Shown one piece after another: positions 1,365 through 26,421 of a stretch of 26,926 bases of DNA. The notes under the pieces are model-generated. The model was not told the DNA's origin, did no database searches, and saw only the letters and a list, made by a program, of their open reading frames with translations. Both the position numbers and the translations under genes were made by a program. Source of the DNA: a virus (Duplodnaviria > Caudoviricetes). How positions within the stretch are numbered: the stretch's first letter is position 1; each line of letters starts with the position of its first letter. The stretch spans positions 1 through 26,926 of IMG/VR virus record IMGVR_UViG_3300010244_000003. The stretch is one strand, 5' to 3'.

Positions 1365-3137
1365 TTGACCACGCTGCACTGCGATGCCCACCGCATCATT
1401 GACGACGGACCCGTGGACGGGGTTATCCGCATCTCGTCCTCACACGTCCAGTACTCCCAGGGCGATCTGGTGATCCCGGATTTCACCGAGAAGGAGATGG
1501 TCGACGGCGAAGCGACGTTCACCAACGTCAAGCCGGGACGGGCTCTGGTGCAGATCCACTGGGGATTCAACAGCATGGTCTCGATCCGGGTGTCAATCCC
1601 GGACACCGACGAGATCACGCTGTCGAAGCTGGCTCTCCAGGACTACGACCTCGAACCCAACATCGTCTCCGAGGTGACCAAGCAGGCCACGAACGCCGAG
1701 AAGGCACTGGCCGATACCCAGCAGGGCCTGGATGACACCACGATCCAGGCCAATCTGGCTACCCAGGCCAGGAACCGGGCGGTGTCGGCCGCCGAGGCCG
1801 CTAACACCAGCAAACAAACAACCAACTCCTACGTTAAGACGGTCGAGACCCACATCGAGACCGTGCTGGGGTACCTGGGAGACACCGAGGCAGCCCGCGA
1901 CGCTGCCAAGGGATACTCCGAATCCGCTTCCGCCGAGGCTTCTCGGGCCGCTGAGAAGGCGCAAGCCGCCGCACAGTCCGAGACCAACTCGGCTAACTCC
2001 GCTGATGCCGCCACCCAGGCGGCCAACGACTCCGCAGAAAGCTCACAGACCGCCTCAGGAGCCGCTGAGACGGCCTCTGCCAGTCTTTCCGAGGTACAGT
2101 CCATCGAGGACTCTCTAAAGGCTCTCATGGCCGATACAGAGTCCTGGAACGATGTGCAGTACGCCCTGGAGCAGGTGGACTCCGACATCGCCTCCGCGAT
2201 GGAGAGTGTGAAGCAGGAGATCCTGGGCGGGGTTGGACCCGCGTACGACACGCTCCAGGAGCTTGCCGATGCGTTCCAGGGCAACCAGTCAGCGATCACG
2301 GCACTGACCGATCAGATCGCCGGTAAGGCCCCGAAGGATCACACCCACACCCCAGACGACATCGAAGGTACCAGCACCGGCATCGGCTACGAAGCAGCCG
2401 GTCTTCGCCTGGTCAAGACAAATTCCGCTGGATTCTTCAACATCGGTGGTGATCCGAAGCTAGAAGCTCACCCGACCAGGAAGAAGTACGTTGACCGCAG
2501 GGTCGATGAAAAGGCCGGTAAGGGCCACAAGCACACGATCCAGGATACCAACGGTCTCCAAGAAGCTCTGGATGGGAAGTCGCCCACCGGGCACGAGCAC
2601 GCCTGGGGCGAGATCTCTGGGAAGCCAGAGATCCCGGTCACCGATGTTGGATACAACACCCGCCACGCCGACGATCCACCCAGTGACTACCCCGCTGGCG
2701 TCTCGTGGGCCATGAGTACCGGTGGCTCCCGTGGATGGGACGAAGCTATCGCGGCAGATGTCCCAGATTACGAGGACAGCGGTTTCGTGATGATCCTGAC
2801 CATGAAGAACCCCTCGTACCCGATGTCCACCACCCAGCTGGTGTTCTCCTATGACAACGAGCACCGGCCCGTGTACCTCCGCAAACACTACGGTACAGAG
2901 GTAGGTTGGGGGCCGTTCCGCAGCCTCACCGACGACGGGCACACGCACGAGATCAGCGAGGTTAACGGGCTTCAGGAGAAGCTGGAGAACATCAACCCCG
3001 ATGTTGGCATCTCGGACGTGACCGGGCTCCAGCCCGCTCTCCAGGCCAAGGTCGAGGGCATGGGTATCCGATTCATCCAGGTCGTCACCCGGGTACCGAA
3101 CCCGCCCAACGCAGAAACACTGTACATCGTTATGTAG
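1365..3137 (+). CDS. tail fibre / minor tail protein
   Basis: TTG start after AAAGGA; Ala/Ser-rich coiled coil, YDTLQELA motif, repeated HxH..I.D..GLQ.AL phage tail repeats. Confidence 0.8.
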   Translation: MTTLHCDAHRIIDDGPVDGVIRISSSHVQYSQGDLVIPDFTEKEMVDGEATFTNVKPGRALVQIHWGFNSMVSIRVSIPDTDEITLSKLALQDYDLEPNIVSEVTKQATNAEKALADTQQGLDDTTIQANLATQARNRAVSAAEAANTSKQTTNSYVKTVETHIETVLGYLGDTEAARDAAKGYSESASAEASRAAEKAQAAAQSETNSANSADAATQAANDSAESSQTASGAAETASASLSEVQSIEDSLKALMADTESWNDVQYALEQVDSDIASAMESVKQEILGGVGPAYDTLQELADAFQGNQSAITALTDQIAGKAPKDHTHTPDDIEGTSTGIGYEAAGLRLVKTNSAGFFNIGGDPKLEAHPTRKKYVDRRVDEKAGKGHKHTIQDTNGLQEALDGKSPTGHEHAWGEISGKPEIPVTDVGYNTRHADDPPSDYPAGVSWAMSTGGSRGWDEAIAADVPDYEDSGFVMILTMKNPSYPMSTTQLVFSYDNEHRPVYLRKHYGTEVGWGPFRSLTDDGHTHEISEVNGLQEKLENINPDVGISDVTGLQPALQAKVEGMGIRFIQVVTRVPNPPNAETLYIVM

Positions 3138-3145
3138 GAGGTCGA

Positions 3146-3817
3146 ATGCCAAGTATACAGATGGGCAGCCGACCCCCGAACAGCATCATCGTCGGCAACA
3201 ACCCGGCTACCGGGATGCCAGCCCCGGCACGGGAGATCTGGCTCGGAGCCGAGAAGGTCTGGCCCGCTCTCACTTGGGAGTTCGAGGATGACTTCGAGCG
3301 ACCCAACGGGCCGCCCGGTCCGAAATGGAGCGGCTCGGGTGGTTGGATCAACAACGGCACCCTTCGCAAGGACGGCAACCCAGGTGAGGGGCGGCTGTGG
3401 ACGGTGCAGCAGTTCAGCTCCGACGATCTGGTTGTCAGAGCGAAGCTGGGCCCGATTGACAATGGAACAATACGAGCAGGTATCAAGCTCGGGAATCCGA
3501 CCTACGGAAGTAATTGGGTTGGGGTGGACTTCTCTGATACAGTCCTGGACATCGTTGGCTACGACGGAGACTGGCCCATCCTCGCTTCCGCCCCGGCGGA
3601 GCCGTGGGGCGCGGGGGACGAGCTAGAACTCCGGCGCGAAGGGGAAACCCTGACAGTGTACCGGAACGGGGACGAAGTGCTCCAGGGCCAGTCCCCGCTG
3701 GCGATTGGTTCTTCGTACCGGCACGTAAACCTCACCGTGAATATGGAGGAGCAAGGATTCCTCAACATCGAGAACCACGGGCCGTCGTTCGAGTCTGTGC
3801 GAGTCGGAACCTTGTAG
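3146..3817 (+). CDS. minor tail / receptor-binding protein with probable lectin-like beta-sandwich
   Basis: IWLGAEKVWP N-terminal motif, then FEDDFERPNG and a beta-rich domain (LTVYRNG); SD AGGAGG. Confidence 0.65.
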   Translation: MPSIQMGSRPPNSIIVGNNPATGMPAPAREIWLGAEKVWPALTWEFEDDFERPNGPPGPKWSGSGGWINNGTLRKDGNPGEGRLWTVQQFSSDDLVVRAKLGPIDNGTIRAGIKLGNPTYGSNWVGVDFSDTVLDIVGYDGDWPILASAPAEPWGAGDELELRREGETLTVYRNGDEVLQGQSPLAIGSSYRHVNLTVNMEEQGFLNIENHGPSFESVRVGTL

Positions 3818-22849: not shown

Positions 22850-24101
22850 CCCGAACGCTAATAAGCCGGAGGGCATCTCCGGCGACTACGATGATGTCCA
22901 CTCCAGAGGATCGTCCTTCGGGCAGGACCTCTCCGCCAAGGGGGTCCGGGACAATCTACTGGGAACGAACATCAGCTGGTTCGAGCGGATCGGCAACTCC
23001 TTCGTAGAAGCTGTGGGCCACATCGGTGACGCTATCTTCTCTGGTATCGACCAGTTATTCGGAGGGTCTGGTAAGGAACTACCACCGCTGTACAAGGGTC
23101 TAACTGATTCAGTTTTTACCGCTGTGAAGCCTATACATTCTCTAGCGGATCGGGCATTAGATAAAGCCACCACCGCCCAGGACAAGGCCGATTCCCTGAA
23201 CGAGGATCTGACCGGCTCCATCGACGGGGATATGTCCGAGGCAGCGGAGAACTACTCCGGCCTCGTCGGGCAGATCAACCAGGAAGCCAAGAAGTTCGGA
23301 CAGTGGGAGGTTGAGCACCAGGAGGATCTGAACGCCAGCTTCTCTCTGGCTCTCTCCGCCCAGGAGCAGATCAATGATGTTAACCAGATCCAGTGGCAGA
23401 CCCAGGCCGACTATAACAAGCAGAATAACGAGATCAACCAGTCTCAGACCGAAGCCCTTAAACTGCACGAGAACCAGCTAATGCTGATGGATGCGGTCCG
23501 TCCCAGGGCCTGGGTGTTCTACACCTCCACCACCCATGATCGAGACCCCTGGGTCTCTGTCCGGGTGAATGACCGGAGCATCGGAGTCACCAGCTACGTA
23601 GAGATCCAGGCTTTAGGTTCCTGGGCCGGTCGGGTGGTAGCCTCCCTCTCGTTCTATGACCAAGGCTCCGGTAGCGAGTCTGCTGTGGATCAGTACGACT
23701 GGTTAGTTACCCGAGGCAGTGCTCAGCATCGCCATATCAGGTTTGATGCCGGAGCAGTGCATATGGGTATTAAAAATGTAGCTGTCACCATCTACCCGTA
23801 CTGGGGTAACGAGAAGCGGGAGTTCCTGCTAAAGCCCTTCGAGGATGATTCAACCAAATCTGGGTACGGTTTCCGGGAGACCGAGGCGTATACCAATGAC
23901 CTGGAAGGCAATCCGATTGTCTGGGGATACGCTGGAGATATTCTCTTCAGCGACCTCACAGTTAGGGCCGACCAGGATGTCTGGGTTCTGGAGGATGATG
24001 ATCAATGGGTGTTCCTTAACGGCTACGGGGGCGATACGATCCCGCCCGGCTACAGTATCCGAGCAGACTCCCTTGACCTTGTAACATTCACCGAAGCCTA
24101 G
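22842..24101 (+). CDS. minor tail protein (probable adsorption component)
   Basis: MTSPN start typical of actinophage minor tails; Q/N-rich coiled coil followed by beta-rich C-terminal domains. Confidence 0.75.
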   Translation: MTSPNANKPEGISGDYDDVHSRGSSFGQDLSAKGVRDNLLGTNISWFERIGNSFVEAVGHIGDAIFSGIDQLFGGSGKELPPLYKGLTDSVFTAVKPIHSLADRALDKATTAQDKADSLNEDLTGSIDGDMSEAAENYSGLVGQINQEAKKFGQWEVEHQEDLNASFSLALSAQEQINDVNQIQWQTQADYNKQNNEINQSQTEALKLHENQLMLMDAVRPRAWVFYTSTTHDRDPWVSVRVNDRSIGVTSYVEIQALGSWAGRVVASLSFYDQGSGSESAVDQYDWLVTRGSAQHRHIRFDAGAVHMGIKNVAVTIYPYWGNEKREFLLKPFEDDSTKSGYGFRETEAYTNDLEGNPIVWGYAGDILFSDLTVRADQDVWVLEDDDQWVFLNGYGGDTIPPGYSIRADSLDLVTFTEA

Positions 24102-24424
24102 CCCAGGGTTGTGTATTAAATTATACGCGGCCCTGCAAGGACCTTAAAAGGAGTAAACCGATGGTCTGTGACCCTCACCCCGGTTCTCACAAAATCCTGC
24201 TCCCGTCGTCACATTCCCACGCCGAAGAGACCCTTGTGCTTTCGACGCACAGGGCCTTCTCCGAACCGCACCGTGGGGGGACTCGCAGCGAACTATCCGT
24301 TCCACGGCGGCTGATACCGAGTTCTCAGCCATTGCTGGGTGGAGCACCGGGGGACGTTTGTGTGCCGGGAACTGTCCGAACTAAACCGGGTGGCAGTTTG
24401 TGTCTAGCCCACCCGATCCCGTTG

Positions 24425-24433
24425 TGCTAGGAT
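24425..24433 (+). promoter_or_regulatory. extended -10 promoter (TG-C-TAGGAT)
   Basis: TGnTANNNT fits SigA-type extended -10; lies just upstream of a two-hairpin unit. Confidence 0.55.
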
Positions 24434-24438
24434 AGGTC

Positions 24439-24516
24439 GCAGACACGAAAGGACTCCTAATCCCTGAGTTTCGTGTTGTGCCCCGTAGACTTTGCCCGAG
24501 TCTGCGGGGCTTCTTA
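24439..24516 (+). ncRNA. putative ~78-nt two-hairpin small RNA
   Basis: Stem GACACGAAA/TTTCGTGTT (24442-24477), then 12-bp stem 24480-24510 plus TTCTTA; G-U pairs favour the + strand. Confidence 0.5.
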
Positions 24517-24563
24517 CTGCCGTCCACAATACACGATCAGGGCGGTACCGCTCCAAGACATAC

Positions 24564-24604
24564 AAAAATAGCCCCCACTCTCCTTGCGGAGAGTGGGGGC
24601 TTTT
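24564..24604 (-). terminator. intrinsic (probably bidirectional) terminator after DNA polymerase
   Basis: Perfect 13-bp stem GCCCCCACTCTCC/GGAGAGTGGGGGC (24571-24600); GCAA loop on - strand; T-tracts on both strands. Confidence 0.9.
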
Positions 24605-24606
24605 AC

Positions 24607-26421
24607 TTATTGGTAGGTCGCTTCGTAGGCTTCTCGATCATCGTCTCCGACGTAGCCGGCTCCCCAGTCGGGACCGAACACGTCAGCGTCAGCGGCGATG
24701 GTGAGCCCGCCGAAGTCCGTGGTCATGGTCTGTGCGATGGTCTCAGCGCCCCACTCAGCCTTGTCGCTGGGGACGCTTGCCAGGATCTCGTCGTGGATCG
24801 GAAGCCGGAGGTACGGAGTGAACCCCAAGGCATCCAGCCGCAGCAGAGCCGCAGCCGTGATGTCCCGGCTGGTGGATTGGATCATGTAGTTCAGCGCCGC
24901 GTAGGAGCGGTCCTGGTCCACGTACAGCCTCCGGCCAGACCCGGTTTCGATGAAGCCGTTTCTCTTCGCCTCCGCAGAGAGCTTGTTGGACAACCGCTTC
25001 ACGCCGGGGAAGGATCTCTCGAACCCCTCGATGACCTCCTTAGCCTTCTTCACCGAGATGCCGGTGGTGGCCGCGATGTTGCCGGCACCGGAGCCGTAGA
25101 CGTAGGCGAAGTTCGTTGTCTTGCCCACCGAGCGATCCACACCCGAGGCATCAGCGGTGATCTGGTGGAGATCATCGCCCCGCTGGAACGCCTGGATCAT
25201 GTTGCGGTCACCCGAGAGGGCCGCCAGCACACGCAGCTCCTGGGCCTGGTAGTCGCACGACACGATGGTCTCTCCGGGATCAGCGACGAAGCACCGGCGC
25301 ACTGTCCAGTCCGACGACGGAAGCGTCTGAGCCGGGATTCCGGTGATGCTCATGCGAGCGGTGCGAGCCAGCAACGGGTTGATGTTCGCGTGGCATCGGT
25401 TGTCACCGTCCCGCATGTCCAGGAACTTGTCCACCCAGCTGGTGCGCCACTTCTTGGCCTTCTTGGCCTCGGTGACAGCGGTTGCCAGCGGGTGGCCGTC
25501 CTCGGCCAGCGGTTCCAGGATCGTCTTGTCCAGCTTGTAGTTGCCGGAGTCGGTCAGCTCGGTGAGCCGTACACCGTCCTGGATCAGGTCCTCCGCCACC
25601 TGTGCGTTGGCGTTGACGGACTCGGTGCCGTACCCGGCCAGGGCCACAGCCTCCCACACGTCCTGCTCCTCCTGGAGCTGTTCGGAGTAGCGCTGGGCGT
25701 AGTCCACGTCCACCAGGAAGCCGTTGGCCTCGATCTCGGAACACACCCGAGCCAGCCGGTGCTCGGTGGCTATCAACCCGCGAGCAGCGGGGGGTACCCG
25801 TGGTAGCAGCATGTTACGCAGCCCGAAGGTGAGGATCACGTCCATGCCGGCGTAGAGCAGGTAGGTCTCGTTCCAGAGGTCGATGCTCTTGAACACCTCG
25901 CCCTTCTTGACCTTGATCTCGTTCGCCATTTGCATCATCGAGCCCTTGACGCTCTCAGCGACCTCCGGGTCAAGGTACGCAGCGGTCAGCTCCTGGAGAG
26001 AGTGGCCGGTGCCACCCTCCTGCTTAGATCGAGAGTCAACCAGGTGAGCGAGAATCTTTGTGTCCGTGATCCGTTCCCAGTCCAGCTGCACCCCGAAGTA
26101 CTGGCGGATAGCCAGCACATCGTAGGAGGCGTTGTGGAAGGTGAGCTGTTCCCCGTGAACGTAGATCCAGATCCGGTCGATCTGATACGGCTGCATCTCC
26201 TCCACGGGCAGCACCCAGGCATCCAGACCCGCACCGATCTGCACGGTGCGAACCCGGAAATCGGGGGAGAAGATGTCCAGTCCAGTGGTCTCGGTGTCGC
26301 AGGCGAAGTTAGCGCCCCGGTGGTGGTCCATCCAGCAGAAGAAATCCTCCAGATCATCCTCGTTCTCCACAATCCGGATAACAGCCTCCTGCCCTCCGAT
26401 TGCCTGGGTCATTAGTTTCAA
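24607..26421 (-). CDS. polA: phage family A DNA polymerase (3'-5' exonuclease + polymerase)
   Basis: ExoI DTETTGL, ExoII HNASYD, ExoIII YAGMD; motif A DYQAQELRVLA, B RSVGKTTNFAYVYG, C IHDE. Confidence 0.96.
   Translation of the reverse strand: MKLMTQAIGGQEAVIRIVENEDDLEDFFCWMDHHRGANFACDTETTGLDIFSPDFRVRTVQIGAGLDAWVLPVEEMQPYQIDRIWIYVHGEQLTFHNASYDVLAIRQYFGVQLDWERITDTKILAHLVDSRSKQEGGTGHSLQELTAAYLDPEVAESVKGSMMQMANEIKVKKGEVFKSIDLWNETYLLYAGMDVILTFGLRNMLLPRVPPAARGLIATEHRLARVCSEIEANGFLVDVDYAQRYSEQLQEEQDVWEAVALAGYGTESVNANAQVAEDLIQDGVRLTELTDSGNYKLDKTILEPLAEDGHPLATAVTEAKKAKKWRTSWVDKFLDMRDGDNRCHANINPLLARTARMSITGIPAQTLPSSDWTVRRCFVADPGETIVSCDYQAQELRVLAALSGDRNMIQAFQRGDDLHQITADASGVDRSVGKTTNFAYVYGSGAGNIAATTGISVKKAKEVIEGFERSFPGVKRLSNKLSAEAKRNGFIETGSGRRLYVDQDRSYAALNYMIQSTSRDITAAALLRLDALGFTPYLRLPIHDEILASVPSDKAEWGAETIAQTMTTDFGGLTIAADADVFGPDWGAGYVGDDDREAYEATYQ

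Follow-up and report, generated by a model that had tools for sequence, protein, structure and literature searches.

A conserved structured RNA-like element of about 247 nt, founding a new family, occupies minus-strand positions 24146-24392 of a 26.9-kb fragment of a siphophage genome (the window, meaning the whole stretch of DNA analysed). Judged by sequence comparison, this core is a real conserved feature. It lies just left of the 180-nt sense/antisense module that a first-pass annotation had singled out, and that module is better described as a 5' leader specific to this lineage, together with a plausible antisense RNA. Carriers of the core include capsid-forming satellites, small prophages, islands and three chromosomal spots. 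We tentatively prefer to see in it a primer RNA from which replication would start at an origin that needs no protein of its own, 24440-24517 being a predicted antisense regulator, a reading whose chance falls somewhat below even.

Setting of the interval between the tail genes and polA

The layout of the window is cluster-A-like, with structural genes running rightward and polA, an HTH gene and a ribonucleotide reductase gene running leftward; tail-fibre-like and virion structural genes, then the lysin, precede the terminase (1365-3817), also as in cluster A. Since the best matches of the lysin are Corynebacterium phages and the named relatives of polA include Corynebacterium prophages, a Corynebacterium host is probable. 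No credible gene lies between the end of the last tail gene (24101) and that of polA (24607); an 89-aa rightward ORF (24161-24430) has no family match and its frame is broken in homologues. The interval is bordered by the following features.

24607..26421, minus strand: phage DNA polymerase I gene (polA), neighbour of the interval
24570..24601, either strand: bidirectional terminator after polA, from a terminator scan
24104..24135, plus strand: hairpin closing the tail operon (-19.2 on plus vs -9.4 on minus), replaced in the related phage described below

Within the tail-operon hairpin, a perfect TATAAT (24119-24124, minus strand) points into the tail gene and is lost in the related phage. Among the closest polA relatives compared, a serine integrase, recognised by reading the sequence, stands directly after polA in two (L006 and L087), and a prophage/host junction falls at the place after polA in another (L086). 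Because these relatives carry an integrase or a prophage junction there, the interval can be read as an integration slot devoid of integrase, which agrees with the earlier proposal that the element stands in the position of the integration cassette; neither integrase nor repA is present at this position in the window.

The core family, its carriers and its fold

The core and its parts, as defined by homologues and covariation, are listed below.

24146..24392, minus strand: conserved structured RNA core (homologues, covariation; the match of covariance model R3 at 24147-24391 is by construction)
24352..24377, minus strand: 5' stem-loop H, with seven invariant pairs in the three-copy alignment; the stem is replaced in G090:C19
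24309..24330, minus strand: hairpin with conserved loop RCUCGG, 5/6 pairs compensatory among three sequences
24271..24307, minus strand: variable-stem hairpin with a GUNCGC loop, from sequence comparison
24220..24263, minus strand: long central stem-loop, 4/17 pairs compensatory and three changed on one side
24167..24213, minus strand: 3' domain, a stem (24213-24208/24172-24167) around a GNRA-type hairpin and a G tract

When 301 Corynebacterium genomes were searched at the DNA level with 24150-24390, two real homologues emerged (E 2e-9 and 4e-9), and five other weak matches of 20-28 nt were dropped. Both homologues (G090:C8 and G169) occupy the distal end of elements of ~10 kb that carry serine integrase, terminase, portal, capsid and head-tail genes, with no tail genes seen; these elements are classed as capsid-forming satellites by gene content, without SatelliteFinder (class name from PMC10085698 and PMC12822802). 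Model R3, built from the window and these two sequences, retrieved a divergent copy in G090:C19 from a search of 150 genomes (28.6 bits, E 8e-6). With that copy as query, further members were found in G140, G313, G094 and G179, and the G313 copy led to G257, G017 and G239, matched in their 3' part only. The family thus amounts to 10 loci in 9 of 321 Corynebacterium genomes, plus the related phage of a second study. Further, runs of both studies contain short contigs that agree with 24338-24390 or 24151-24234 before continuing into different, hairpin-forming sequence.

The surroundings of the copies vary. In the window, G090:C8 and G169 the core and the capsid or tail operon point in opposite directions, and in G090:C19 the core precedes a Bro-N gene. 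In G140, G313 and G094, which are small prophages at tRNA-Lys, it lies in line with the operon between an excisionase-like gene and whiB-HNH-terminase; these prophages also have an endolysin gene between the portal and capsid genes (L179/L191, L180/L192 and L181, respectively). No replication family was matched by any of 18 scanned ORFs of the G140 prophage (a scan that left aside small ORFs between capsid and tape measure), and the early regions of G313 and G094 hold on the core's strand only ORFs of 139 aa or less, three of which were scanned without a match. The copies of G257, G017 and G239 lie among ordinary chromosomal genes, as near-identical 3' halves beside a GT87 glycosyltransferase and LuxR-type regulators (L187-L189), and are possibly domesticated. 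An integrase is present in all prophage and satellite carriers with ends seen, and Rep-like genes occur in two carriers, namely G090:C8 (E 1e-13) and the G179 island (weak, E 1e-6). In the G090:C8 satellite, four ~29-nt hairpin repeats with a ~61-nt period and palindromic spacers lie directly 3' of the RNA (L161:9825-10030); they resemble type I-E CRISPR repeats in shape, or may be iterons. Adjacency to polA, noted in the first-pass annotation, is kept by no other carrier of the core.

Beyond these carriers, searches of INPHARED with three family members gave no match, and blastn with two members against PLSDB (72,556 plasmids) gave three short chance matches for one and none for the other. 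Order-level genome samples yielded 0/401 by pattern, and a model search of 150 found only the centre genome. Among the pattern scans of IMG/VR, one returned a single chance in-gene match, one returned none, one gave 36 stretches, of which none was confirmed, and two re-found the G169 satellite together with that same chance match. Rfam 15 (including tmRNA, RNase P, SRP, C4, raiA and ribozymes) produced no gathering-score match on the window and none on two homologue loci, and a tmRNA/tRNA search found neither. Candidates set aside were Rfam sX13 (26.5 bits vs 50 needed, E 0.24), taken as chance; resemblances by eye to tmRNA, RNase P, group I/II introns, T-box and HDV-like RNAs, for which there was no Rfam support; and a 30-nt look-alike in L032-34/L052, which lies within a reading frame. 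Literature searches, mostly of listings and abstracts, did not reveal the core family in print, and the supplements of PMC10690425 gave no match to three motifs, with files 1, 2 and 4 outside the search and a prior listing there possible.

A hand-drawn minus-strand structure for the three closest copies leaves 94.8% of cells paired, and 9 of its 45 pairs are changed on both sides, as against 0/500 shuffles and at most 4 in slid controls; being drawn from the same sequences on which it was scored, this structure overstates covariation. Less circular support comes from the 3' stem, which has 6-9 bp in all 10 copies examined (G257 left out) with pair types varying at several positions, and from two double changes read by eye in stem H of the related phage (24354/24375 and 24358/24370). 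The last 65 nt are G-rich in 10/10 copies (G 25-29 vs C 7-14), and in several a strong hairpin directly follows the 3' stem. The consensus folds better on the minus strand (-58.8 vs -45.3 on plus), and 7/10 single copies fold at least equally well on minus (two ties), with 3/10 better on the other strand; in four carriers the genes around the core lie on the same strand as it does. Folded singly, core sequences do no better than shuffles (z -1.2, +1.2 and -0.9), and the whole-interval values (z -6.0/-4.3) owe much to the terminators. A minimum-free-energy pairing of 24178-24193 with 24357-24369 was rejected, as it is broken by the changes of the related phage, and the local stem is preferred. 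Since some stems cross, a pseudoknotted or switching fold is likely, a point that the rough alignment of eight copies does not decide. The family itself is solid on these comparisons, and its function is what we infer below.

The lineage-specific leader and the predicted antisense RNA

The features to the right of the core, on which the first-pass annotation concentrated, are as follows.

24393..24519, minus strand: predicted lineage-specific 5' leader, with hairpins 24382-24419 and 24443-24476
24425..24433, plus strand: extended -10-like box for a predicted antisense RNA, unchanged in runs X2-X5 (chance 0.18)
24440..24517, plus strand: predicted antisense RNA of ~78 nt, ending in the terminator-like hairpin 24480-24510
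24381..24446, minus strand: 21-codon ORF, peptide unconserved (0 synonymous, 4 non-synonymous changes)
24542..24551, no strand: 10-bp palindrome, function unsupported (chance 0.17)
24526..24531, minus strand: -10-like TATTGT, candidate promoter of the long RNA, not called by the scan (chance 0.13)

On direct reading, every motif named earlier is found at its place: the extended -10-like box TGCTAGGAT (24425-24433, plus strand), the hairpins 24443-24476 and 24480-24510 followed by TTCTTAC, the latter hairpin also found by scan, the minus-strand TATTGT, the palindrome GCGGTACCGC (24542-24551), and, on the minus strand, AGGAG, 7 nt and GTG at 24446 with the stop TAG at 24383-24381. The 21-codon frame is also part of a 48-aa ORF starting at an upstream GTG. 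No motif exceeds chance by itself: 3000 base shuffles of the 180 nt produced every one of them at rates of 5-18% (TGnTAnnnT 0.18; TATTGT-like 0.13; 10-bp palindrome 0.17; AGGAG plus start 0.05). The promoter scan called no sigma-70 promoter-like site in 23900-24800, leaving both TATTGT and the extended -10 uncalled. Nothing supports the suggested binding of the HTH protein to the palindrome.

The same region can be compared with a related phage, recovered from four runs of one other study (X2-X5) and diverging from the window by ~4.5%; runs X7 and X8 gave no aligned sequence and X6 none over the interval, which is not proof of absence. This phage retains 24164-24606 as one block joined to polA, with at least 20 substitutions and at least 8 indel events (the comparison spanned 1.5 kb in all), and 930 other bases replace 24065-24163 on the tail side, the joint falling at 24064-24164. 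In record 3 of run X2 these 930 bases (~830 more than in the window) lie beside the RNA's 3' end and end in a plus-strand stop codon. Both boxes and the palindrome are unchanged, which is weak evidence at such divergence. The hairpin 24443-24476 has five substitutions and four deleted bases, so that most of the inner stem is altered; its 7-nt loop (24454-24460) is kept, displaying UUAGGAG on the minus strand, and by inspection the stem re-forms, best on minus. The leader hairpins favour minus (24382-24419, -17.2 vs -13.7; 24443-24476, -10.6 vs -9.0), and hairpin 24480-24510 favours plus (-23.7 vs -17.5), where a change at 24483, seen in X2 only, preserves the pair on that strand alone. These preferences fit two overlapping RNAs, both predicted.

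Among the changes listed for the related phage, those in the 21-codon ORF are 0 synonymous and 4 non-synonymous, and those in polA are 15 synonymous and 2 non-synonymous. As all four ORF changes are non-synonymous, against the synonymous-rich polA, the peptide is not under selection. This pattern and the polar character of the peptide agree with the earlier view that a classic type I toxin is unlikely. In plasmid ctRNA/leader-peptide control, an antisense loop is complementary to the Shine-Dalgarno sequence before a short ORF. The window has the same complementarity between its predicted antisense loop and the Shine-Dalgarno sequence before the short ORF; unlike the plasmid systems, its leader has no rep gene downstream and its peptide is unconserved. 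The sense/antisense geometry described by the first-pass annotation does exist at the sequence level, and in the integrase slot; it is not the conserved unit. Positions 24395-24560 are not conserved in other carriers, and the conserved part is the "structured domain" that had been mentioned in passing.

Candidate functions of the core

For the core as origin primer, the following sequence of events is proposed. A leftward transcript with a predicted start near 24519 would fold through the core and, by its G-rich 3' domain, remain hybridised to the template as an R-loop; the hybridised RNA would be processed and then extended by a Pol I-type enzyme. A short rightward RNA would pair loop-to-loop (CUCCUAA/UUAGGAG) with the 5' leader, blocking priming.

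The closest parallel in setting is provided by cluster A phages with parABS. Stable lysogeny of these phages depends on ~600 bp at the integration-cassette position, which express a leftward RNA and are sufficient to support replication with neither parABS nor any ORF present (PMC7157519). Phages with such RNA-based, non-RepA origins (RedRock, Alma, Gladiator, LadyBird and Et2Brutus) have extrachromosomal prophages (PMC7157519). When aligned, the cluster A origin regions reveal a strongly covarying RNA (23/81 pairs) that is absent from Rfam, and a rightward TA.A.T box stands shortly before the terminator hairpin in 14/14 aligned copies. The window resembles them in genome layout, integration-cassette position, a leftward RNA (predicted here), a region of ~450-600 bp without a needed ORF, a rightward -10 box and terminator hairpin at the right end, and a covarying structure missing from Rfam; it differs in that the core family lacks an adjacent parABS and extends to satellites and prophages that carry an integrase. 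Although a forced alignment looked collinear, membership of the cluster A family was rejected: an HMM of 17 cluster A origins did not match the window, two covariance models did not either (best E 0.09, the polA terminator only), and the models did not match 12 carrier loci.

Some observations concern the cluster A origins themselves. They have complementary loops UGCCA/UGGCA (L098:733-1398, L099:649-1261, L100:665-1263 and L101:576-1223; alignments A4-A6), with a further UGCCA in the terminator loop, and most of their G-U pairs speak for the rightward strand, contrary to the leftward direction reported for the RNA. A clear homologue of their core is found in Gordonia phage Daredevil (NC_048021; L103:2373-2752), lying within the 1.2 kb that separate the HNH gene from the terminase-region genes; no parAB was seen in the stretch examined. 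A palindrome, TCGTCAC(A/T)GTGAC, flanks the cluster A ori/parAB cassettes in inverted arrangement (L098:739/2386, L099:651/2234 and L100:668/2407) and also occurs at L170:1424, before the Bro-N gene of G090:C19; it is operator-like.

In ColE1, the antisense RNA overlaps the 5' end of RNA II, and a G tract favours a persistent hybrid that RNase H cuts. The predicted arrangement here is similar, with a structured long RNA, a G-rich 3' end and a short antisense RNA over the 5' end; unlike in ColE1, the antisense part is not conserved across the core family, and the plasmid collection holds no match. In ColE1 itself, RNA II is long and structured and RNA I is a short antisense RNA (PMC7157519, introduction). 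On the best reading, the core would work like the cluster A RNA origin and ColE1 and belongs to neither.

The origin reading is favoured by the gene-free integrase-slot position, where cluster A phages place an RNA-based origin; by an overlap geometry equal to their box-before-terminator arrangement; by the presence of the core in the early region of small prophages without a detected Rep gene (G140, G313 and G094); by the G-rich 3' end, which a primer remaining hybridised to its template should have; by the cluster A cassette palindrome ~90 nt 3' of the G090:C19 copy; and by the related phage, which keeps 24164-24606 as one block with its tail side swapped. Against it stand the failure of cluster A HMMs and covariance models to match, the lack of parA/parB relatives in the 27-kb window fragment and 14 carrier loci, the integrases and two Rep-like genes of other carriers, the three chromosomal copies, the strong hairpin that in several copies comes directly behind the 3' stem and would suit a free RNA, the antisense extended -10 in only 1/10 copies (the window itself), and the non-significant core folding with its mixed strand preference. 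Of the earlier suggestion of an antisense-regulated primer or origin, the geometry stands at sequence level and has its parallel in the cluster A RNA-based origins; origin function would follow by analogy, the core showing no homology to a proven origin. A wider version holds that the core is a portable protein-free RNA origin, with a fold unrelated to ColE1 or cluster A, swapped among a cluster-A-like phage, Rep-less mini-prophages and satellites, with an antisense copy-number switch acquired here; it would explain how the smallest actinobacterial phages replicate without a replication gene, and is rather unlikely in its entirety.

It is also quite possible, if doubtful, that the core is a free trans-acting accessory RNA (scaffold, decoy or catalytic) carried as phage or satellite cargo, for example in phage-satellite or defence conflict, with the antisense RNA as its off switch. 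Large ornate RNAs of phages and mobile elements include the raiA motif, ROOL, GOLLD and ARRPOF, and the core is likewise multi-stem, covarying and on mobile DNA; unlike them, it matches no Rfam family. A free RNA would suit the varying context and orientation (opposite to the operon in three carriers, in line in three, chromosomal in three), the distal position in satellites, one of which has its own Rep, the conserved unpaired motifs and crossing stems, which suggest a tertiary fold, and the 3' hairpin, often with a UUUA loop, that closes many copies. It would leave the integrase-slot and Rep-less early-region positions unexplained, the carriers have no partner gene in common, and the RNA is predicted from sequence alone.

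Less probable is a cis-acting leader, an attenuator or antiterminator for downstream genes: the core does precede the Bro-N gene in G090:C19 and whiB-HNH-terminase, with a terminator-like hairpin following, in G140, G313 and G094, but in the window, G090:C8 and G169 its 3' side faces convergent structural genes, so that nothing is there to regulate in cis. More improbable still is that the fold acts as single-stranded DNA (a lagging-strand or restart signal) or as a small mobile unit with incidental leader motifs; the predicted status of both transcripts, mixed strand assignment by energy and TAAAC-like words at both ends in three copies would allow it, yet one-sided changes of G-U type and GNRA/UNCG-type loops point to RNA, and the copies are single and divergent, not insertion-like. 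A functionless chance cluster of terminators, suggested by motifs common in shuffles and by non-significant core z-scores, is highly improbable, as homologues with E 2e-9 to 6e-24 in unrelated elements and with compensatory changes largely refute it for the core, if not for the leader.

Within the family there are at least three sub-types whose stems covary, which suffices for mutant design. If the core is a free RNA, it would represent a new class of ornate non-coding RNA exchanged between phages and satellites. If it is an origin, it would give the actinophages a second RNA-primed replication system, with an independent fold, permit a direct test of how small Rep-less prophages copy their DNA and provide a compact replicon for Corynebacterium genetics.
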